Shown: positions 1 to 63,426 of the stretch, piece after piece
Position numbering within the stretch: the stretch's first letter is position 1
Layout of the letters: each line of letters starts with the position of its first letter
NCBI RefSeq assembly: GCF_963921235.1
Contig: NC_086097.1
Span: 128,652,001-128,716,000 of the forward strand
DNA: 64,000 bases
Source of the DNA: Mobula hypostoma
Taxonomy: Eukaryota
Direction of reading: 5' to 3'
Translations under genes and position numbers: made by a program
The notes under the pieces: model-generated
Database searches by the model: none
What the model was told of the DNA's origin: nothing
What the model saw: the letters and a program-made list of their open reading frames with translations, nothing else

Positions 1-642
1 TCCCACCACCCCACTAGGAATAGGGTTCCCCTGGTCCTCACCTACCACCCCACCAGCCTCCGGGTCCAACATATTATTCTCCGTAACTTCCGCCACCTCC
101 AACGGGATCCCACCACTAAGCACATCTTTCCCTCCCCCCCTCTCTCTGCATTCCGCAGGGATCGCTCCCTACACAACTCCCTTGTCCATTCGTCCCCCCC
201 ATCCCTCCCCACTGATCTCCCTCCTGGCACTTATCTGTGTAAGCGGAACAAGTGCTACACATGCCCTTACACTTCCTCCCTTACCACCATTCAGGGCCCC
301 AAACAGTCCTTCCAGGTGAGGCATCACTTCACCTGTGAGTCAACTGGGGTGATATACTGCGTCCGGTGCTCCCGATGTGGCCTTTTATATATTGGTGAGA
401 CCCGACGCAGACTGGGAGACCGCTTTGCTGAACATCTACGCTCTGTCCGCCAGAGAAAGCAGGATCTCCCAGTGGCCACACATTTTAATTCCACATCCCA
501 TTCCCATTCTGACATGTCTATCCACGGCCTCCTCTACTGTAAAGATGAAGCCACACTCAGGTTGGAGGAACAACACCTTATATTCCGTCTGGGTAGCCTC
601 CAACCTGATGGCATGAACATCGACTTCTCTAACTTCCGCTAG
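1..642 (+). CDS. PLE RT-GIY-YIG polyprotein, C-terminal 213 aa (partial, no stops or frameshifts)
   Basis: Manual translation of frame 1 is open from base 1 (SHHPTRNRVPLVLTYHP...FRRDRSL...CKRNKCYTC) into ORF 316..642. Confidence 0.88.
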   Translation, partial: SHHPTRNRVPLVLTYHPTSLRVQHIILRNFRHLQRDPTTKHIFPSPPLSAFRRDRSLHNSLVHSSPPSLPTDLPPGTYLCKRNKCYTCPYTSSLTTIQGPKQSFQVRHHFTCESTGVIYCVRCSRCGLLYIGETRRRLGDRFAEHLRSVRQRKQDLPVATHFNSTSHSHSDMSIHGLLYCKDEATLRLEEQHLIFRLGSLQPDGMNIDFSNFR

Positions 643-934
643 GCCCCACCTCCCCCTCGTACCCCATCTGTTACTCATTTTTATGCACACATTCTTTCTC
701 TCACTCTCCTTTTTCTCCCTCTGTCCCTCTGAATATACCTCTTGCCCATCCTCTGGGTCACCCCCCCCCTGTCTTTCTTCCCGGACCTCCTGTCCCATGA
801 TCCTCTCGTATCCCCTTTTGCCTATCACCTGTCCAGCTCTCGGCTCTATCCCTCCCCCTCCTGTCTTCTCCTATCATTTTGCATCTCGCCCTCCCCCTCC
901 TGCTTTCAAATCCCTTACTCACTCTTTCTTCAGT

Positions 935-972
935 TAGTCCTGACGAAGGGTCTCGGCCTGAAACGTCGACTG
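935..972 (+). ncRNA. Minimal type I hammerhead ribozyme in PLE pseudo-LTR
   Basis: Stem I AGTC(936-939)/GACT(968-971); core CTGACGA 940-946; stem II AGG..CCT; GAAA 960-963; GTC cleavage triplet 965-967. Confidence 0.85.
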
Positions 973-1022
973 CACCTCTTCCTATAGATGCTGCTTGGCC
1001 TGCTGCGTTCACCAGCAACTTT

Positions 1023-3479: not shown

Positions 3480-4180
3480 ACCACAAGACCGTAAGATATG
3501 GAAACAGAATTAGGTCATTTGGCCCATCAAGTCTGCTCCATCATTCCATCATGGTTGATCCATTGCCCTCTCAGCCCCAATCTCCCACCTTCTCCCCATA
3601 TCCCTTCAATCCCTGACTAATCAAGAATCTGTCAACCTCTGCCTTAAGTATACCCAATGATTTGGCCTTGACAGTTGCCTGTGACAATGAATTCCACAGA
3701 TTCACCACTCTCTGGCTAATGAAATTCCTCCTCCTCCTCTGCATGCTAAATGGACTTCCTTCTATTCTGAGGCCATGCCCTCTGGTCCTAGACTCACCAC
3801 TATAGGAAACAACTACTCTATCGACACTTTTCAATATTTGAAAAGTTTCAATCAGATCACTCCTCATTCTTCTAAATTCCGGCAAGTAAAGGGCCAAAGC
3901 CATCCATCAATTGTTCCTCATGCGATAAGCCTTTCATTCCCAGAATCATTCTCGTGAACTTCCTTTAAATTCTCTCCAATGTCATCACATCCTTTCTTAG
4001 GTAAGGCACCTAAAACTGCTCACAATACTGAAAGTGAGGCCTTACCAGTGCCTTATAAAGCCTCAACAGTACATCCTTGCTTTTATATTTTAGTCCTCTT
4101 GAAATTAATGCTAACATTGCATTTGCCTTCCTCACCACCAAATCAACCTGCAAATTAACCTTTAGGGAAACCTGCATGGC
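3480..4180 (-). mobile_element. CR1 LINE 3' fragment
   Basis: ORF 3571..3903 EFRRMRSDLIETFQIL...RTRGHGL...FISQRVVNLWNSL. Confidence 0.88.
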
Positions 4181-4305
4181 TCATGCGGTATCTTGTCCTT
4201 TCACATGGGTGAGAAGAGGATTCGGACCGTCAATCTGTGAGTTATTCCTGGAACTAATATGGTGGGATTACTCAACCCAATGGCTGCCTTTCAGCATTAC
4301 CAAAG

Positions 4306-4592
4306 AGGGGCACCTCAGTAGCATAGTGGTTAGTGTGACACTATTACAGCTCGGGGCATCAAAGTTCAGAGATCAATTCTGCCGTCCTCCTTAAGCAAGT
4401 TTGTACGTTCCTTGTGTGCTCGCAGGTTTCCTCAGGGTGCTCCGGTTTCCTCCCACGCTCCAATTGGCCACCGCAGGTTGTCCCGTCATTAGGCTAAGGT
4501 TAAATCGTGTTAAGTCAGTGGGTTTGCTGGGCAGTGCAGCTCGGGGGCCGGAAGGTCCTATTCCAAGCTGTATCTCCAAATAATTAAATAAG
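4306..4592 (+). mobile_element. tRNA-derived V-SINE-type element
   Basis: A-box TAGCATAGTGG; V-domain GGTTTCCTCAGGGTGCTCCGGTTTCCTCCCAC; CR1-like tail and A-rich end. Confidence 0.75.
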
Positions 4593-4614
4593 TAATGAGT
4601 CGATAGTATTTATT

Positions 4615-4852
4615 TTTTTAATTTAGAGATACAGCACATTAAAAGCCCAATGAGCCTGCTCTGCTCAACTACACCAATGTGACCTACTAACCCATACATC
4701 TTTGGAATATGGGAGGAAACTGGAGCACCCAGAGGACACCTGTGCAATCATGGTGAGAATATACAAGCTCCTTACAAACAGCAGCAGAAATGAACATGGG
4801 TTGCTGCCACCCTCACAGCGAAAACCAAAATGGTATGCTGCCTTGCTGCCCC
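4615..4852 (-). mobile_element. V-SINE-type element
   Basis: TGGGAGGAAACTGGAGCACCCAGAGGA is the reverse complement of the V-domain. Confidence 0.7.
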
Positions 4853-4984
4853 CATTTGTTGTTATGTGGACTGGTGAAGAGAATAGCATTAACATCTCAA
4901 TGAAAAAGCTGCCTACATACATAAAAGGGAAAAGAAAAGAGAGTTATGTTGATAAAACAACATGAAGTGAGATGGGAGATCATT

Positions 4985-5125
4985 CTGTTTGTAAAAGGGC
5001 ATGAAGGGATATGGGAAGAAGGCAGGAGGTTGGGCCTGAGAGGGAAATGGATCAGCCATGATGAAATGGCAGAGCAGACTCGATGGGCCAAATGGCCTAA
5101 TTCTGCTCCTGTATCTTATGGTCTA
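4985..5125 (+). mobile_element. CR1 3' UTR fragment
   Basis: GATGGGCCAAATGGCCTAATTCTGCTCCTGTATCTTATGGTCT, matching the CR1 end at ~55030-55075. Confidence 0.75.
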
Positions 5126-5157
5126 AACTACAGCTTCTTCATGTTAGTATTTTGACT

Positions 5158-5288
5158 CTGTGTGTGTGTGTATGTGTGTGAGAGAGAGAGAGAGAGAAAT
5201 AGAAAGTACATGATTGTGTGTGAGTGTGTATGTTTGCACATCTATGTGTGTGTTTGTCAGTGTATGTCTTTGTAAATGTTTGTATGAG

Positions 5289-5320
<32 letters not shown>

Positions 5321-5460
5321 GGGGGGGATTGGGTGTGTGTGTTAATGGGTCTTTGTTCTTGTGCTAGCTTGTGTGCATGTGCATGCATGTGCACACATGC
5401 ATATGTGGGTTTGTGTGTCTATGCATGTGTATATGGAATTGAGAGTGCGTGTAAGTGTAG
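5158..5460. repeat. Compound (TG)n/(GA)n microsatellite, degenerate
   Basis: Runs of tgtgtg and gagaga. Confidence 0.9.
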
Positions 5461-6059
5461 ATGGCTGAATGCAGACATGTGTGAATTTACATCCATTACA
5501 AAGTGTTAGTTTCATCTGGCTAGTGGCTAGAATATTGGGGATGATCTCCCCATAACAGCTGCTCTGAGGAAATACTTAACCTGCATCCTGAGCATCTGTT
5601 TCTGTTTTACTTCGTTCTCTTGCATTCAGCTTTTCATTACGTCTTCATGAAGATCAAATGTCCTCTTCTTAGAAGAATATCTAGTTTCTCCAACAATTAA
5701 CTAATCATTAATAAAACACTTTCCTTTGAATAATTTGACTCCTAACCACACATTACATAACTTTGTTAGTATATCATTAATTTTGAAGCAAGACTAGAAA
5801 TTTTAGTTCATCTAGTGACAGAGCCTTTAATCCTGAGACTTGTATTGCATGTGTCAGAAGAAACCACTTTTGACAGATTCACAGATCCAGACACTCTTGC
5901 TATTACTACTGCATGCTTCTGAGTTAACCATCATCTCCCTCAATGTCAACTATCAGAGATGTTTCCTTTTCAATGTTACTTTGCCAAAATTACGGCATTT
6001 CAAGTAAACAAAATGTACGTTTCTCTGGAATCTTCAATGCAGCAAAGCCCTCCTGAGAC

Positions 6060-6260
6060 AAATAAGGCATATGGCTAAAGATTTGCCCAAAGAAGTAGCA
6101 AGAGTAAACTTCATGGGAGTAGAGTGAGATAATGAGGCAGAGAAGATTAAGGAGGAAACTCCAGACCTTGGGCCCCTAATAACTGAAGGAATAACTATCA
6201 GAGCATGAGGAATTTATTTCACATGACCAAGAAATGGAATTAAAAGGGCATATATTTTTA
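6060..6260 (-). mobile_element. Old L2-like LINE 3' fragment
   Basis: Approximate reverse complement of the 18470-18790 repeat. Confidence 0.4.
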
Positions 6261-6379
6261 AGATTCTGAGACAGGAAGTGGATTGTAAGAGATGTCATGG
6301 GAAATTATATGATAATTGAGTCACTTTCCTGAGACAATTTTCCCCGAATATATAACATATGGTCTAATTAACATCTAAG

Positions 6380-7082
6380 TACACTCAGTGTCCACTTTAT
6401 AAGGTAGCTACACACATCAAATGCTGGTGAACGCAACTCTTAGGCTGAGCCTTTGGCGTGCCGAGCAACGGCCAGTTATGGAACCCCGAGAGTGGCTCCT
6501 GCAAAGAACCGCAGTCAGCGTGTTACTCCAGGTCAGGGTCTTCAAAATAACCCTGAAAGGGTAAAATAGAGATATTCATCATTATTATTAAGTACCATGT
6601 TGTTTGACATACAGTAGGTGATCATGGTCTAGGACCTTGATCATTCTTGGCAAATGTAATTCTTGGTAAATATAAGGTAGCTCCTGGCCACGGACTGTAT
6701 GTTCAAGGACTACTGCCTTCCTGTCAGCTTGAACCACTCTGGCCATTCTCCTCTCACTTCTCTCATTAACAAGGTGTTTTCACCCACAGAACTGCCACAC
6801 ACTGGATTTTTGTTTTGTTTTGTTTTTTGCACCATTCTTTGTAAACTCTGGAGATTGTTGTGCATGAAAATCCTAGTAGATCTGCAGTTTTTGAGGTATT
6901 CATACCACTCTGTTTTGCACCACAGCAAAGCCACTTGGATCGCATTTATTCCCCATTCTGATGTTTGGTCCAAACAACTAAACCCCTTGACCAGGTCTGC
7001 ATGTTTTCATGCATTGAGTTTCTGACACATGATTAGATATTTGCATTAAGTAGCAGATGTACAGGTGTACCTAATAAAGTAC
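6380..7082. mobile_element. Non-autonomous Tc1/mariner element (interrupted at 6410-6670)
   Basis: Left end TA|CACTCAGTGTCCACTTTATAAGGTA; right end GGTGTACCTAATAAAGT (inverted repeat); Tc1-type internal sequence. Confidence 0.72.
6410..6670 (-). other. Chimeric insertion: 26-nt PLE tail plus inverted copy of 7663-7884, with 12-bp TSD
   Basis: TSD tataaggtagct 6398-6409 / 6671-6682; 6436-6657 is the reverse complement of 7663-7884 (10 mismatches in 222 by hand count). Confidence 0.88.
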
Positions 7083-7284
7083 ACCCAAGCACCATGGGTG
7101 ACCATTCGAATGGACTTGTAATCTAAGAATAATTGTGAATTTGAGAATTAACTATGGTTTATAATCACAAATGTGCTCGTTTGGAAAAGTTTTCTCCTAT
7201 GGTAAAAGTTTCTTAATTGTCTACCAGTATTTAGTGAAGCTTAATTTACACCATTATATTGTTCTTTGTCCTTTCACATAATTA

Positions 7285-31509: not shown

Positions 31510-33270
31510 GTGTTTTCCCCAGTGCACTGGTTTGGTGAAAACCGAGTTGACATCAAACAACTCCTGGATGAAAAGCATCATCTTCAAAAGGTTTTCCTCA
31601 GAGATCCTAAATCCATGTCAAAGAAGGATGCCTTCACTAGCATCTTTTCCAGTCCCGCTGAAGGGTCTTGGCCCAAAACATCAACCGTTTCCTCTTTTCT
31701 GTAGATGCTGCCTGGTCTGCTGAGTTCCTCCGGCGTTTTGTGTGTGTAGTTCTGTGACAATTATCAGGGAATGTCCTTGCTGTCTATCACAGGCAAAATC
31801 TTCACCAGGCTTCTCCTCAACCATTCCACATATCACCTTGACTAGGGACTCCTACCAGAGAGCCAGTGTGGATTCTGGAAAGAGCATGGGATTATTGACA
31901 TGGCTTTTGCTTTAAGGCAGCTGCAAGAGAAATATCAAGAGCAAAACGCTGACCTGTTCTCCTGCTATGTCAATCAGACTAAGGCCTTCAATACTGTTAG
32001 CAGAGGGGGTCTGTAGAAGATCATGGTGAAGTATGGATCACCATGGTGCAGCAATTCCATGATGGCAGGCAAGCTAGAGTTCAGGACAATAGTGAGATAT
32101 CCAAGCTCTTCCCTGTCCCAAACTGGGTCAAGCAGGACGGCGTCTTACTGCCAATGCTGTTCATCGTGGTGTTTTCCTCCATGTTGACTGATGCCTTCAG
32201 ACCTGGTAGCATAGAGATTGGCAGTCAGATTCCTCACTGACGAGTAACTGTTCAACCTCAGGAGGCTCCAAGCAAAAAATGAATGTCAGACATCAGCAGA
32301 GACTTCCTTTTTGCTGATGACTGTGCCCTCAATGCTGGTTCAATAGTTGATATGCAGTGGAGCGTCGACAAGTTTTCTGATGTGTGTACCAACTTTGGGC
32401 TTAACGTGAGTACCAAGAAGATTGAAGTAATGCATCAGCCAGCTCCAGGGAAATGATACATTGAGTCAAACAGCACAATCAACAGTCTAAGAGAACAGGT
32501 TTGCATATCCCCATAACACACTGTCCTAGAATATCATCGTTGATGACGAAGTAAGTGCCTGGATCGCCAAAGAAAGTGATAGCCTTCGGCACACTTTATA
32601 CAAAGTTCTGGAACAGAAGAGACATAAATCTACAGATGAAGCTGAAGGTGTACAGGGCCACAGTACTTCCTACTCTACACCTGTGAAGCAGGGACACTGT
32701 ACCAACAGCATGCCAAGAAACGGAACCATTTCCAAACAGTCTGCCTCAGAGTTCTTCTCAACACTAAGTGGCAAGACTGAATTCCTGACACTGAGGTACT
32801 TCCCATGCCAGGCCTGCCCAGTATCTACATCATCCTGATGCAGTCCCATGCAGCTCATATGCCAGACCATTGGCTGCCTAAGAGACTGCTTTACAGAAAA
32901 CTACAGAGAGGAAAGCATTTCCTTGGAGGCCAAAGGAAACACTATAAAGCCACCCTGAAAACTTCACTAAAGGCCTTTGGCATCAACCCAGACATATGGG
33001 AACACAAGGATCAGGTTGAGTGGAGCGCCTCCCTCCAGAAGTGTGCAGTGACACGAGGCAGAAAGGGCAATTGCGGAAGAGAGACAGAGGCTGGCCAGAA
33101 AAGCCTGAGACAGCGACCCCTAACCCAATGTGGCTGCCATCTTTTGTCCTCTCTGCTAAAGAACTTCTCGAGCATGGATTAGCCCCTGCATGGATCTGGG
33201 TACCCACAGACCAGTCCAAGCCCAGCCCCTACAAATTGTGGATGACTAGTCATTGTTGCATGACGGACAA
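31510..33270 (+). mobile_element. RTE-clade (BovB-like) LINE, degenerate RT and C-terminus
   Basis: WFGEN..IKQLLDEK; NYQGMSLLSITGKIFTRLLLN; LPESQCGF; LRQLQEK; LFADDCAL; MPDHWLPKRLLY...GGQRKHYKATLK. Confidence 0.88.
31645..31750 (+). mobile_element. PLE hammerhead and tail fragment inside the RTE
   Basis: ccagtcccgctgaagggtcttggcccaaaacatcaacc...gatgctgcctggtctgctgagttcctcc. Confidence 0.78.
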
Positions 33271-37353: not shown

Positions 37354-37989
37354 ATACCACGTGCCATGGCACCACCATTCTCAACTGTTGCTCACTGAAG
37401 GTATCAGCTGTGCGCCATGAGGTCATGAAGTCTGTCTATGCGTATCATTGATGTAATGGCATGATGTTCCTATATGGTTGAATGACTGACAATGGGTGTA
37501 GTGTTAGAGGTCTGTTTGCAAGATTTAAGGCGTGGAAAGTGTGTTGATAGTGGGTGATGAAATGTTAGCAGGGAACGGGAATGCATCTGGTGGGATATGT
37601 GATATTAAGTTATATGTGTTGAACACAGCATTTTGCTCACTGACGTTGCATCCACAGGCTTGAAGCTTGATTTCTCACATTGAGTGTCACAGTCCTCTGC
37701 CTTTACCTAGTGGTTCTCCGGACTCTTCACACATAAAAGACCTCTCTCTTACCTTCCTTTTTGTCTGTCAATGCTCACCGAGTCAATTGGAAGACTCTGG
37801 GCCCCTTCTCTCAGCTGTGAACTTCCAATAAGCATGAAAGACCATTGGAAAAACTTCCACCTATTCTCAGCCACGGTACCTCACTTCCTTAGCAGGTACA
37901 GCTTGATGCAGAAAAGATTGCCATGGATCCTGTGTAGTGATCACACTCAGATTCATGAAGCTGTCTCTATCCATTGCACCAAGTTGCCT

Positions 37990-39025
37990 GCCACCTCCAA
38001 CGAACATATAATTCTCTGTAACTTCTGCCACCTCCAACGGGATCCCACCACTAAGCACATCTTTCCCTCCCCCCCCTCACTGCTTTCCGCAGGGATCGCT
38101 CCCTACACGACTCCCTTGTCCATTCATCCCCCCCCATCTCTTCCCACCGATCTTCCTCCTGGCATTTATCCTTGTAAGTGGAACAAGTGCTACACATGCC
38201 CTTACACTTCCTCCCTTACCACCATTCAGGGCCCCAGACAGTCCTTCCAGGTGAGGCGACACTTCACCTGTGAGTTGGCTGGGGTGATATACTGCATCCG
38301 GTGTTCCCGATGTGGCCTTCTATATATTGGCGAGACCCGACGCAGACTGGGAGACCATTTCGCTGAACACCTACATTCTGTCCACTGGAGAAAGCAGGAT
38401 CTCCCAGTGGCCACACATTTTAATTCCACGTCCCATTCCCATTCTGATATGTCTATCCATGGCCTCCTCTACTGTCAAGATGAAGTCACACTCAGGTTGG
38501 AGGAACAATACCTTATATTCCGTCTGGGTAGCCTCCAACCTGATGGCATGAACATTGACTTCTCTAACTTCCATTAATGCCCCACCTCCCCTTTGTACCC
38601 CATCCGCTATTTATTATTATTACTTTTTTCCCTGTTTTTTCTCTCTCTCTTTTTTCTCCCTCTGTCCCTCTCACTATACCCCTTGCCCATCCTCTGGGCT
38701 CCCCTCCCCCTTTCTTTCTCCCTAGGCTTCCTTTCCCATGATCCTCTCCTTTCTCCAGCCTCATATCCCCTTTGCCAATCAACTTTCCAGCTCTTAGCTC
38801 CATCCCTCCCCCTCCTGTCTTTTCCTGTCATTTCGGATCTCCCCCTCCCCCTCCCACTTTCAAATTTCTTACTATCTCTTCTTTCGGTTAGTCCTGACGA
38901 AGCGTCTCGGCCCGAAACATCAACTGTACCTCTCCCTATCGATGCTGCCTGGCCTGCTGCATTCACCAGCATTTTTTTGTGTGTGTTGCTTGAATTTCCA
39001 GCATCTGCAGATTTCCTTGTGCTTG
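37990..39025 (+). mobile_element. 5'-truncated PLE: linker, GIY-YIG, pLTR, hammerhead (38890-38925), complete tail
   Basis: CKWNKCYTC...GVIYCIRCSRCGLLYIGETRRRL; agtcctgacgaagcgtctcggcccgaaacatc. Confidence 0.93.
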
Positions 39026-49531: not shown

Positions 49532-50350
49532 GCACACAAAATGCTGGAGGTACTCAGCAGGGCAGGCAGCATCTATGGAAAAAAATGTACATCTGACGTT
49601 CTGGGCTGAAACCCTTCGGCAGTACTGGAGAAAAAAAGCTGAGGAGTAGATTTAAAAGGTGGGGGGAGGGGAGAGAGATCCCCCTGGTGATAGGTGAAAC
49701 CTGGAGGGGGAGGGATGAAGTAAAGATCTGGGAAGTTGATTGGTAAGACGAGGTGAGAGAGGGAAAAGTGGATGGGAAATGGAGAAGGGAGGGGGTTGGG
49801 GGTTATCGCCGGAAGTTTGAGAAATCAATGTTTATGCCATCAGGTTGGAGGCTACCCAAGCAGAGTATAAAATGTTGTTCCTCTAGCCTAAGTGTGGTCT
49901 CATCACGATAGTGGAGGAGGCCATGGATGGATATATCGGAATTGGGAATGGGAACTGGGAGATCCCGCCTGTTCTGGCGGACGGAGCATAGATGCTCGGC
50001 GAAGCGGTCTCCCAATCTACGTCAGGTCTCACCGATGTACAGGAGAACTGAACACAGTATATGACTCAAACAGACTCACAGGTGAAGTGTTGCCTCAGCT
50101 GGAAGGACTGTTTAGGGTTGTGGATGGTAGTGAGGGAGGAGGTGTAGCACTTATTCCAGTTGCAAGGACAAGTGCCAGGAGGGAGATCAGTGGGGAGGGA
50201 TGCATGGACAAGGGAGTGATCCCTGTGGAAAGCAGAAAGTGGGGGGGCGGAGGGAAAGATGTGCTTGGTGGTAGGATCCCATTGGAGGTGGCGGAAGTTT
50301 CAGAGAATTATGTGCTGGACATGAAGGCGAAGGCTGGTGGGGTGGTAGGT
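49532..50350 (-). mobile_element. Degenerate PLE (linker, EN, pLTR, variant hammerhead ~49591-49628) inside a Rex1 3' end
   Basis: GDRFAEHLCSVRQ...LGSLQPDGINIDFSNFR. Confidence 0.88.
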
Positions 50351-56599: not shown

Positions 56600-58550
56600 C
56601 AGTCATATTCCCACCTCCTACCCAAGATTCACAAACTCGCTAGTCAAGGTACACCCATTGTTTCAGCTTGTTCCTGCCTTACTGAACTCATATCTGCACA
56701 CCTCCACTCTGTTTTACCTTCCCACTTCAGTCCCTTCCTACCTACATCCATGACACTTCACACGCCCTGGATCTTTTCAATGATTTCAGGTTCCTTGGCC
56801 ACCATCATCTTACTTTTACTATGGATGTCCAGTCCCTATACACCCCTCTCCCCCACCAGGAAGGCCTCAAAGCTCTCTGTTTTCTTCTGGACACCAGACC
56901 TAACCACTCTCCTCCGTCTAGTGGAACTTGCCCTCACTCTCAATAATTTCTCCTTTGGCTCCTCCCACTTCCTTCAAACAAAAGGTGTAGCCGTGGGCAC
57001 TCACATGGGTCCCAGTTTTGCCTGCCTGTTTGTCAGCTACGTGGAACAGTCTATGTTCCAAGCCTACACTGGTGACTGTCCTGCATTTTTCCTACGCTAC
57101 ATCAACGACTGCATTGGTGCTGCTTACTGCACCCATGCTGAACTCGTCCACTACATCTACTTTACCTCCAAATTCCACCCTGCCTTCAAATTTACCTGGT
57201 TCATTTCTGACACCTCCCTCCCCTTAAATTTACCTGGTCCATTTCTGACACCTCCCTCCCCTTTCTCGATCTCACTGTCTCTATCTCTGGAAACAGCTTA
57301 TCCACTGATGTCTATTATAAACCCATGGACTCTTACAACTACCTGGACTATACCTTGTCCTACCCTGTTACTTGTAAAAACACCATCTGATTCTCTCAAT
57401 TCCTCCGTCTCCACTGCAACTTCTCTCAGGATGAGGCTTCTCATTCTAGAATGAAGGAGATGTCCTCCTTTTTCAAAGAAAAGGGCTTCCCTTCCTCCAC
57501 CATCAACGTTGCCCTCAACAACATTTCTTCCATTTCATGCATGTCTGCTCTTACCCCTCCCTCCCGCCACCATACAAGGGATAGGGTTCCTCTTATCCTC
57601 ACCTACCACCCCATCTGCCTCCGCATCCAGCACATAATGCTCCAAAACTTCCACCACCTCCAACGGGATACCACCACCAAGTACATCTTTCCCTCCCCCC
57701 CACTTTCTGCTTTCCATAGGGATCGCTCCCTATGCTACTCCCTTCATCCCTCCCCACTGATCTCCCTCCTGGCACTTACCCTTGCAAGTGGAACAAGTGC
57801 TACACCTACCCCTACACCTCCTCCCTCACTACCATTCAGGGCCCTAAACAGTCCTTCCAGGTGAGGTGACACTTCACCTGTGAGTCTGCTGGGGTCATAT
57901 ACTGTATCTGGTGCTCCCAGTGTAGCCTCCTGTATATGGGTGAGACCCAACATAGATTGGGAGACTGCTTTGCCGAGCCTGAAAATGCAGGATCTCCCAG
58001 TGGCCACCTATTTTAATTCCAATTCCCATTCCTATTCTGATATGTCCATCCATGGCCTCCTACACCTGTCATGATGAGGCCACATTTAGGTTGGAGGTGC
58101 AACACCTTATATTCCGTTTGGGTAGCCTCCAACTTGATGGCATGAACATTGATTTCTCAAACTTCTGGGAAAGCCCCCCAACCCCCCCTTCACCATTTCC
58201 CATCCCCTTTTTCCACTCTCACCTTATTCTCTGCCCACCCATCACCTCCATCTGGTGCTTTTCACCCCATTACTTTCTTCCAGAGCCTTCTGTCTTTTTC
58301 ACCAGTCAGCTTCCCAGCTCTTTACTTCATCCCTCCCCCTCCAAGTTTCAGCTATCACCTGGTGCTTCTCTCTCCCCTCCACCCTCCTTTTAAATCTACC
58401 CCTCAGATTTTTTTCTCCAGTCCTGCCGAAGGGTTTCAGCCGGAAACGTCAACTGTACTCTTTTCCATAGATGCTGCCTGGCCTGCTGAGTTCCTCTAGC
58501 ACTTTGTACGCATTACTTAGATTTCTAGCATCTGCAGATTTTCTCTTGTT
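56600..58550 (+). mobile_element. Longest PLE copy: degenerate RT, linker, GIY-YIG, pLTR with variant hammerhead (58418-58455)
   Basis: LLPKIHK...PIVS; TMDVQSLYT; NNFSF.SSHFLQTKGVAVGTHMGPSFACLF; FLRYINDC; frameshifts including a 38-bp tandem duplication 57188-57263. Confidence 0.92.
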
Positions 58551-59439: not shown

Positions 59440-60489
59440 CCTCACTCCACAGGTTGAGCCAGAGCTAATGTAAGTTTGAGTTAAACAGAGGCAGATCGTT
59501 CTGCCATCCGAAACAGAGCCCGTCCCCTGAGCAGAGGCAGCAGAAATGACAAACCGCACACAACATTCTGAATAGGGCTCCTTGTAGGAGCACAGTGGGA
59601 GTCAAATCCTCTTTCACGTCATATTATCTGACAGATGTAGGCAGACCCCTGTCAGACAAAAAGCTTCCTGCACCTGGATACAATGAGCTGCCATTTTGCT
59701 GTCTTTTTCACAGTGTTGTGAAGCCAATTGGCCAGCTTAAATAGCATTACATGATTTTAAAAACGTTCTCTTGTATGCAAAAAAAAAAGTCAGCTGCAAC
59801 AGCATTGCTACCGTTTGCAAGGCAGAAGTTGCACAACGTCACCAGTGGCAAAGAAAACAACAATGACAATGGCATTATAATTTTCAGATCAAAGCAAAGT
59901 ATGTCTACCAGGTAAAAAGGATTACTTTCCCAATTAACATTCCAACTGTACTGGATCAAAGAGAGGGCTCTTCTGCGAAGATTCCTACAACGGCAGTCCC
60001 ATCAAACACCCACAGCCCACCGATTTTACTGAAGCTGTACTACTGACTACACCTTGCTCATTTGAAGTAGTATTACAGTGAAAACATTTTATTGTTCAGT
60101 CTTGGAATAATAAAAAATTTGTGGCAGGGAATTATGCCCATTCAACCATGCCAGCAAGAATAGTCTACCAACGTTATTGAGCTCCCATTTCCTAGTCTTG
60201 CTGGTTAGTTTCACATGGACTGAGATACAGTGAAGAGCTTTTGTTTGCATGGCATCAAGACAGATCATTCCATGATTAAGTAGATCACGGTCGTATAAAA
60301 ATAATAACTGAATGTGTGTCTTCTTTATGTTTGCTTCAATTTGCTGGTATAGCCCGGGCAAGTTCTGTGGATGGCACAGCTTGCAGCCACTGTGTCTCTG
60401 TGATGGATGGGGTACAGTCAAATGGGACGGTGTAGAAGTTCTCCAGCGCTGTAGGATCAGTACACATCCAAGCAAGTGAGGAATATTCC

Positions 60490-61232
60490 ATTCAGGGCCC
60501 CAAACAGTCCTTCCAGGTGAGGCATCACTTCACCTGTGAGTCGACTGGGGTGATATACTGCGTCCGGTGCTCCCGATGTGGCCTTTTATATATTGGTGAG
60601 ACCCGACGCAGACTGGGAGACCGCTTTGCTGAACATCTACGCTCTGTCCGCCAGAGAAAGCAGGATCTCCCAGTGGCCACACATTTTAATTCCACATCCC
60701 ATTCCCATTCTGACATGTCTATCCACGGCCTCCTCTACTGTAAAGATGAAGCCACACTCAGGTTGGAGGAACAACACCTTATATTCCGTCTGGGTAGCCT
60801 CCAACCTGATGGCATGAACATTGACTTCTCTAACTTCCGCTAGGCCCCACCTCCCCCTCGTACCCCATCTGTTACTCATTTTTATGCACACATTCTTTCT
60901 CTCACTCTCCTTTTCCTCCCTCTGTCCCTCTGAATATACCTCTTGCCCATCCTCTGGGTCACCCCCCCCCCGTCTTTCTTCCCGGACCTCCTGTCCCATG
61001 ATCCTCTCGTATCCCCTTTTGCCTATCACCTGTCCAGCTCTCGGCTCTATCCCTCCCCCTCCTGTCTTCTCCTATCATTTTGCATCTCCCCCTCCCCCTC
61101 CAGCTTTCAAATCCCTTACTCACTCTTCCTTCAGTTAGTCCTGACGAAGGGTCTCGGCCTGAAACGTCGACTGCGCCTCTTCCTACAGATGCTGCTTGGC
61201 CTGCTGCGTTCACCAGCAACTTGGATGTATGT
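60490..61232 (+). mobile_element. Young 5'-truncated PLE (GIY-YIG and pLTR)
   Basis: ORF 60517..60843 has the same protein as 316..642; exact 13-bp TSD tgaggaatattcc 60477-60489 / 61233-61245. Confidence 0.95.
61136..61173 (+). ncRNA. Minimal type I hammerhead ribozyme (intact)
   Basis: tagtc CTGACGA agggtctcggcct GAAA CGTC gactg, identical to 935-972. Confidence 0.85.
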
Positions 61233-62358: not shown

Positions 62359-63126
62359 TCAACAGGAATTCTGCAGATGCTGGAAATTCAAGCAACACAC
62401 ATAAAAGTTGCTGGTGAACGCAGCAGGCCAGGCAGCATCTCTAGGAAGAGGTGCAGTCGACGTTTCAGGCCGAGACCCTTCGTCAGGACTAACTGATGGA
62501 AGAGTGAGTAAGGGATTTGAAAGTGGGAGGGGGAGGGGGAGATCCAAAATGATAGGAGAAGACAGGAGGGGGAGGGATAGAGCCAAGAGCTGGACAGGTG
62601 ATAGGCAAAAGGGATACGAGAGGATCATGGGACAGGAGGTCCGGGAAGAAAGACAAGCGGGGGGGACCCAGAGGATGGGCAAGGGGTATATTCAGAGGGA
62701 CAGAGGGAGAAAAAGACCTCCTGTCCACGGCCTCCTCTATTGTAAAGATGAAGCCACACTCAGGTTGGAGGAACAACACCTTATATTCTGTCTGGGTAGC
62801 CTCCAACCTGATGGCATGAACATCGACTTCTCTAACTTCCGCTAATGCCCCACCTCCCCCTCATACCCCATCTGTTACTTATTTTTATACATACATTCTT
62901 TCTCTCACTCTCCTTTTTCTCCCTCTGTCCCTCTGAATATACCCCTTGCCCATCCTCTGGGTCCCCCCCCCACCCCTTGTCTTTCTTCCCGGACCTCCTG
63001 TCCCATGATCCTCTCATATCCCTTTTGCCTATCACCCGTCCAGCTCTTGGCTCCATCCCTCCCCCTCCTGTCTTCTCCTATCATTTTGGATCTCCCCCTC
63101 CTCCTCCAACTTTCAAATCCCTTACT
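62359..63126. mobile_element. Young PLE inversion insertion: minus pLTR (62359-62715) plus plus-strand EN end/pLTR (62722-63126)
   Basis: Exact 14-bp TSD aatttaccaactta 62345-62358 / 63127-63140; 6-nt filler acctcc at the junction. Confidence 0.92.
62454..62491 (-). ncRNA. Minimal type I hammerhead ribozyme (intact)
   Basis: cagtcgacgtttcaggccgagacccttcgtcaggacta is the exact reverse complement of 935-972. Confidence 0.85.
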
Positions 63127-63194: not shown

Positions 63195-63426
63195 ATTTAA
63201 AAACGTAAACACGAGGAATTCTGCAGATGCTGGAAATTCAAGCAACACACCTCAAATTTGCTGGTGAATGCAGCAGATTCGGGCCGAGAGCCTTCGTCAG
63301 GACTGACTGATAGCTCTTCCTTCAGTTAGTCCTGACGAAGGGTCTCGGCCCGAAACATCGACTGTACCTCTTCCGAGAGATGCTGTCTGGCCTGCTGCAT
63401 TCACCAGCAAATTTGAGGTGTGTTGC
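63195..63426. mobile_element. Fold-back PLE tail insertion with divergent hammerhead motifs (63278-63304 minus, partial; 63327-63364 plus)
   Basis: gcaacacacctcaaatttgctggtgaatgcagcag / ctgctgcattcaccagcaaatttgaggtgtgttgc; TSD tttggttgtgg 63184-63194 / 63427-63437. Confidence 0.88.

Follow-up and report, generated by a model that had tools for sequence, protein, structure and literature searches.

A minimal type I hammerhead motif sits in the pseudo-LTR (pLTR) of a hugely amplified Penelope-like element (PLE) of Mobula hypostoma, and on balance we favour the reading that it would cut after C967 only weakly, as a protein-aided dimer of two motifs in full-length partial tandems. The motif was noticed in a sequence-only reading of the window, by which we mean the whole 64,000-nt stretch of DNA that was analysed. 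That reading had proposed a hammerhead without helix III that acts as a dimer. The motif fits this proposal, which is not new: both the form and the dimer model appear in an earlier paper by Cervera and De la Pena (2014, PMC4209133).

The motif and its host element

The layout of the motif (Table 1) includes the core CUGANGA...GAAA...NUH of the published minimal hammerheads (min-HHRs) at 940-946, 960-963 and 965-967. GAAAC (960-964) runs directly into GUC (965-967), so that helix III cannot close within one motif, as had been pointed out, and ACGU (963-966) provides the palindrome at 15.1-16.1 of members of the class that have no helix III. C17 is position 967, and the predicted cut stays after it, where the earlier reading had put it. 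Helix I falls within the 2-5 bp range of the class, and its strands are paired in the minimum free energy (MFE) structure. The register of helix II had to be moved; the helix is better read as an extra A947 between 9 and 10.1 followed by GGGU/GCC(C/U) with a 4-nt loop. This register is preferred by 1.4 kcal/mol (-6.0 versus -4.6 kcal/mol) and matches the published layout.

Table 1. Features of the window; positions are counted from its first nucleotide.
Feature	Position	Strand	Remarks
3' end of Penelope-like ORF	1-642	+	thumb/linker with CX4CxxC zinc-finger motif, GIY-YIG; frame 1 open, stop 640-642
Pyrimidine-rich 3' UTR	643-935	+	part of pseudo-LTR
Predicted masking hairpin	921-951	+	921-933 with 940-951; young subfamily only
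Initiator-like YYANWYY with A936	934-940	+	likely transcription start, inferred
Minimal type I hammerhead motif	936-971	+	sequence, published consensus, folding
Helix I; CUGACGA; extra A	936-939/968-971; 940-946; 947	+	hammerhead parts
Helix II; GAAA; palindrome ACGU	948-951/956-959; 960-963; 963-966	+	hammerhead parts; predicted cut after C967
Linker and conserved downstream block	972-1021	+	to short tail-less 3' end of window arm
Related C6 copy	31650-31687	+	
Older copy, C at 11.1	38889-38926	+	87% identical
Related C6 copy	49590-49627	-	
Older-subfamily copy, C at core position 6	58418-58455	+	joined to about 2 kb of RT/EN sequence
Second young copy, 5'-truncated	60488-61222	+	98.8% identical; motif 61136-61173
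Third young copy, left arm of head-to-head pair	62405-62715	-	motif 62454-62491
Right arm of third copy's pair	62721-63126		breaks off before own motif
Small head-to-head pair	63268-63364		motifs 63327-63364 (+) and 63268-63305 (-, partial)

The three identical 38-mers listed by the earlier reading (935-972 and 61136-61173 on the + strand, 62454-62491 on the - strand) are all exact, and its estimate of some ten decayed copies held up, with nine window sites that carry 2-11 mismatches and about six gapped or partial relics (blastn). In a pattern search of the 3.48-Gb genome, the 36-mer 936-971 gave 32,886 exact matches (16,386 + 16,500) and the reversed 36-mer, as a control, 0 + 0. The neighbouring 20-mers at 941-960 and 975-994 gave 67,451 and 116,330 matches. 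Related Penelope-like sequence covers about 6% of 484 kb sampled (random regions L155-L194, together with L011, L012 and the window).

The placement in a PLE pLTR was borne out. GIY-YIG lies in 1-642 (PF01541, E 8.5e-5, 23.2 bits against a cut-off of 22.6), and the ORF of this copy continues upstream of the window, where RT sequence is found (region L011) and the copy is 5'-truncated inside RT. At a longer locus (L046), one frame that is open for 1,043 codons from stop to stop holds RT (RVT_1, E 4e-5) plus, C-terminally, GIY-YIG (E 0.0042), each below its curated cut-off, which is the single-ORF organization of EN+ PLEs. Within 4011-7139 of this locus about 330 N-terminal codons precede the GxxF motif, and Pfam gave no match to them at E<=0.1. 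A CX2-5CxxC linker between RT and EN, here CX4CxxC, was read from the translation. Because this linker marks the Neptune and Nematis clades (PMC8557442, available part) and vertebrate PLEs are classed as Neptune or Poseidon (preprint 10.64898/2026.07.22.740005, available part), the element likely belongs to the Neptune clade, a placement drawn from motifs and host range.

Direct tandems, with two motifs on one strand, had been claimed and were found. Among 39 long loci, taken as regions around matches to the N-terminal part of RT and so chosen for length, 8 have same-strand motifs 3,511-3,517 nt apart (about 3,514 nt, or 3.5 kb), with the motif in both pLTRs and the 5' motif about 170 nt ahead of the likely ATG; these tandems were identified from DNA searches and fetched regions. 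At another locus (L064, G000:C1:5927971 and 5928431), two exact same-strand motifs lie only 460 bp apart and are a possible natural short dimer.

The window copy is of another kind. Here the insertion is head-to-head and 3.36 kb long (L011 7669 to window 1024), with arms that are 97% identical and truncated inside RT; the window copy forms its right arm, and the partner motif is therefore antisense. Two motifs had been expected to pair; the 10 kb upstream of this copy contain no partner on its own strand and, being 5'-truncated with an antisense partner, the copy is probably inert. Solo and head-to-head copies in general are likely inert as well. The suggestion that the genome is seeded with latent ribozymes found no support: solo copies and copies with an antisense partner make up most of the sample, and misfolding is predicted for the monomer.

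Head-to-head pairs are common, and long double-stranded RNA would result if a near-perfect inverted repeat such as this one of 3.36 kb were read through. In 57 of 60 pairs, which are not a random sample of loci, one end lies near 1034 and the other near 1069. Partial tandems, an inverted 5' copy and an optional tail at one end are thus all present, as in EN+ PLEs, for which inverted partners and a one-sided tail have been described (PMC8557442 and PMC3846280, available parts). Two simple origins for the pairs were considered. The arms might have come from two different RNAs and so preserve the trace of an RNA dimer; they disagree at 24 of 349 diagnostic sites (random pairs: 43%; other sites: 2.3%), which lends this origin no support, although two RNAs of one source locus would look alike. 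Alternatively, a single cDNA might have folded back; the short-tail arm extends further 5' in 21 of 57 pairs, and simple fold-back is therefore insufficient as the only origin.

Conservation and natural variants

The sequence-only reading had named, as an outcome that would refute it, a lack of excess conservation of the core across subfamilies. Conservation was examined in 348 copies found by the downstream block, 214 of them unselected on motif letters. From these, 90 were classed by their flanks alone into five subfamilies (n=59, 7, 8, 11 and 5); the other 124, being truncated or unclassed, were set aside. Within the 36 nt the five majorities differ only at CpG sites, at N7, at two loop II bases, at 11.1 and by one A6C. 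The 80 nt upstream are 56-80% identical among the five subfamilies (56-64% between young and older), and at fourfold EN sites one young and one older copy match at 50 of 72. The 36 nt have therefore been kept while the flanks drifted, and the prediction was upheld. The ACGU palindrome is likewise retained in all five, CpG decay aside. The stems show no covariation within the Mobula hypostoma genome, and therefore constraint on structure is inseparable here from constraint on sequence.

An Infernal scan, which had been proposed as a check, gave 12 Rfam matches at E<=10, none of the 12 to a hammerhead family, and the folding z-score of the 38-mer is only -1.24. Both results would suit a chance look-alike that hitchhikes in a young repeat. 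That explanation is largely refuted, and we regard it as very improbable: the position, the 9.1 nucleotide, the palindrome and the core are all as in published PLE motifs, and the subfamilies have kept the motif although their flanks diverged. One of the weak matches from such searches, to U6 snRNA at 37877-37974 (+; 21.6 bits, E 0.58, under the gathering score), lies just upstream of a PLE copy at 38003 and is possibly a U6 relic or chance.

Two of the natural variants bear on function. The window copy, like 80 of 100 young-lineage copies among the matches listed, has U at 11.1 (G.U), and so has lost the G10.1-C11.1 pair that is conserved in more than 80% of the published consensus. C at 11.1 is the majority in two older subfamilies and is blurred by CpG decay in the other two. 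The second variant, A6C, marks an older coding subfamily: its pattern has 1,364 matches in the genome, and 2,307 when A stands in place of C. The change is present in 8 of 8 flank-classed copies of this subfamily, which share their flanks and have coding sequence attached. Among titles and abstract openings in the literature we found no A6C hammerhead in PLEs, and saw the variant reported only for a phage and an engineered hammerhead. The departures at U11.1 and A6C count against a strict need for catalysis.

This brings forward a lesser, though real, possibility: that the motif derives from a hammerhead but that its present job is non-catalytic (as a promoter-proximal element, in binding protein or in shaping the template end), cleavage playing no part in the spread. 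The amplification of the A6C subfamily with its coding sequence, the loss of G10.1-C11.1 in the youngest lineage, and loop and stem letters almost as fixed as those of the core are what such a job predicts. However, apart from A6C and CpG, the variation sits at N7, loop II and 11.1, where hammerheads tolerate variation. Moreover, in another hammerhead the A6C change took kobs at 0.3 mM Mg down from 0.30 to 3.6e-6 per min and spared activity in Mn; given Mn or high Mg, such hammerheads still cut (PMC7151607). From other elements, the spread of Naiad PLEs without the motif (PMC8557442, available part) speaks for the non-catalytic reading, and cleavage of related PLE motifs in vitro (PMC4209133 and PMC11167929, available parts) speaks against it.

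Inspection of the matches listed also revealed copies that lack the entire hammerhead body between the two GUC repeats (3 of 100, e.g. G000:C1:50360383, 98170412 and 103023575). These deletions probably arose from template switching across the hairpin.

Folding, copy ends and the proposed cut

ACGU had been described as self-complementary, and it does permit a double hammerhead fold that is nested, with no crossing pairs. With ACGU paired to ACGU and helix I strands exchanged, this structure has a predicted energy of -9.5 kcal/mol, or -14.7 kcal/mol for a natural copy with C959. The MFE structure of the monomer (-10.0 kcal/mol) is an inactive rod in which the core (942-945) pairs with the region of the cut triplet (964-967), and two strands fold best into an inactive duplex (-28.3 kcal/mol) that is far stronger than the active dimer. 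These values come from a nearest-neighbour model, in which the tertiary energy of the core is ignored. Dimer cleavage of minimal hammerheads was reportedly described by Lunse et al. in 2017 (PMC5785218), to go by the title and by the reviews PMC6765202 and PMC6466107. In the young subfamily a predicted masking hairpin removes helices I and II, the probability of helix I being 0.0-0.03 with the upstream context and 0.12-0.91 without it. As a general switch this hairpin was rejected, since it is predicted for the young subfamily (4 of 60 shuffles folded as low) and not for the other four.

The 5' ends of copies were located with patterns that required a break in the sequence upstream of a fixed 20-mer. 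Breaks in 928-941 gave 5,113 matches, compared with 1,530 and 1,405 in the control windows 915-928 and 908-921. Among the matches listed for 928-941, about 40 of 100 start at 936-937 when counted by eye, and the same peak appears in a second set (about 33 and 35 of 100 among the matches listed, by eye). We estimate a 4-9-fold enrichment per base, accounting for about 10% of copies, with denominators estimated from small samples. The sequence upstream of these starts is target DNA with duplications, or an inverted arm, and has no common exon. YAG stands at 935-937 in all five subfamily majorities, and 934-940 resembles an initiator (consensus YYANWYY). The likeliest cause of the peak is transcription that would start at A936, the first base of helix I. 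We favour a transcription start because of the target DNA upstream, the initiator-like context of A936 and the internal promoter of D. virilis Penelope (PMC2377424, available part); in the literature we found no report of a start at the first base of helix I. A full-length copy on the - strand (L027, G000:C76:21267018-21275018) starts at 936-938 of the upstream motif, has end repeats that are 100% identical and a 9-bp target-site repeat, and has the appearance of a transcript that began at helix I and was copied completely.

A splice acceptor at AG 936-937 was considered as the cause of the peak and rejected: no sense exon-1 recurs in 100 listed junctions (by eye), there is no peak at the branch-like A921, and target-site duplications abut several of the ends. 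All subfamilies do have a branch-point-like motif, a polypyrimidine tract and YAG at 912-937, ahead of the motif, and in D. virilis an intron ends at helix I (PMC4209133, available part). The segment could serve as a cryptic splice acceptor in host transcripts, and some transcripts may contain an intron. We saw no spliced genomic copies, and contigs of four presumed-RNA runs had no usable ends or splice joints.

At the predicted cut site the signal is smaller. Breaks in 963-975 number 2,968 of 116,330, and 329 copies start at 968, against 69 at 967 and 82 at 969, a 4-fold excess over the neighbours that amounts to about 1% of copies after correction for capture. Starts at 963-965 are equally common (10-16 of 100 each among the matches listed, by eye). 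An inverted partner was present in 27 of 30 of the 968 starts that were examined (L315-L344). In 9 of the 30 the 4-nt helix I repeat links an arm starting at 968 to an arm that ends at 936, so that the same tiny head-to-head insertion recurs, and in another 8 the join lies in recurrent overlaps of 2-3 nt. The excess at 968 is compatible with rare cleavage and also with joining by microhomology, and the two are confounded. The peak at the foot of helix I, away from the cut, is what a non-catalytic motif would be expected to leave, whereas the 4-fold excess at 968 counts against that reading.

As a whole, we prefer the following scheme of weak dimer cleavage. Transcription would start near A936 in the upstream pLTR of a tandem, placing one motif at the extreme 5' end of the RNA and a second one unit further on. 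The 5' and 3' motifs, or those of two RNAs, could then pair through ACGU/ACGU and swapped helix I strands, forming two active sites, each of which would cut the other strand after C967, probably with help from the element's protein. The double cut would release a unit-length RNA. Cutting would occur in a minority of molecules and uncut RNA would be the usual template; since the site was intact in most templates that underwent reverse transcription, cutting appears to be minor or optional. A further step, which we hold to be rather doubtful, is that in an RNA starting at A936 the hammerhead would act as a 5'-terminal switch on a capped leader, cutting few templates in vivo, as the 968 excess might record; from the spread of A6C, catalysis would tune Penelope mobility and not be required for it.

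Frequent cleavage might instead be hidden. If the dimer cut efficiently, the unit RNA were circularised, and rolling reverse transcription passed over the religated site, partial tandems would result and the read-through would conceal the cuts. Such circles were proposed in PMC4209133 (available part), and the spacing of the tandems is exactly one unit. Religation would restore the sequence, and read-through alone therefore does not tell against this model. We nevertheless consider it unlikely: about a tenth of copies end at 936-937, including the full-length L027 with its target-site repeat, which points to a linear uncut template; the folding energies are unfavourable; and no RNA-seq ends were detected at the cut site of the anole element (PMC11167929).

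Comparison with known systems

Judged by its sequence, the motif is another case of the described PLE min-HHR class. In the available part of PMC4209133 this class is defined as type I hammerheads that lack helix III and loop 3, carry an additional base at 9.1, have G10.1-C11.1 and a palindromic 15.2-16.2, and are expected to act as dimers; the PLE motif of S. mansoni is inactive as a monomer and weakly active as dimers and trimers, and the rows for X. tropicalis(2), S. purpuratus and Ixodes(1) have CUGACGA-N and C-GU-H without loop III. The Mobula motif fits the published CUGANGAH-G..C-GAAAN-palindrome-NUH, with CUGACGA-N and C-GU-H as in those rows. It shares with the class the type I topology, the absence of helix III, the palindrome, the 9.1 base, the short helix I and the pLTR location, as well as solo and opposite-strand copies genome-wide and the dimer model. 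It differs in its shorter helix II (4 bp with wobbles), in U11.1 in the youngest lineage and in the A6C subfamily. There are at least 32,886 exact copies here compared with about 4,000 in coelacanth and about 9,000 in Xenopus as published, and the chordate rows in the available part of the paper include no cartilaginous fish (PMC4209133). One chondrichthyan genome with hammerhead repeats appears in the available part of a preprint (10.64898/2026.07.22.740005); we found no dedicated report of this motif in sharks or Chondrichthyes in the literature.

The hammerhead of the anole Poseidon element (PAc) needs the element's protein to cleave. Insertion in vitro does not require this hammerhead, and catalytic mutants leave it unaffected, a further point in favour of a non-catalytic job (Frangieh et al. 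2024, PMC11167929). Both elements have a weak motif at the junction of pLTR and ORF and two neighbouring 3' ends that give an optional tail (about 1034 and about 1069 in the Mobula element). In contrast to PAc, the Mobula element has the CX2-5CxxC linker, which Penelope and Poseidon lack, and about 170 nt separate its motif from the likely ATG downstream, whereas the motif of PAc overlaps the ATG. With Neptune-clade EN+ PLEs (Craig et al. 2021, PMC8557442; Arkhipova et al. 2013, PMC3846280) it shares the C-terminal GIY-YIG, the DKG and GxxF motifs, the zinc-finger linker, partial tandems, an adjacent inverted 5'-truncated copy, a 30-40 bp tail at one end and target-site duplications. It differs in its long open frame (1,043 codons), and the clade has here been set by motifs and host range. 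The role of the hammerhead in PLEs is treated as open, in words or by implication, in PMC8557442 and PMC11167929. A young family of more than 100,000 copies with intact tandems and the natural core variants U11.1 and A6C is a convenient system in which cleavage in vivo, and the need for it, could be tested.

Finally, the retrozymes of newt and axolotl (Cervera and De la Pena 2020, PMC7229834, available part) are also vertebrate type I hammerheads at very high copy number, and their hammerheads cleave better as dimers. The copy number in Mobula is no record, because axolotl has 126,247 type I motifs according to the same source. Retrozyme hammerheads still possess a short helix III, capped by a palindromic loop, and lie in non-coding tandem repeats of 330-350 nt, whereas the Mobula motif has no loop III and lies inside an autonomous element.
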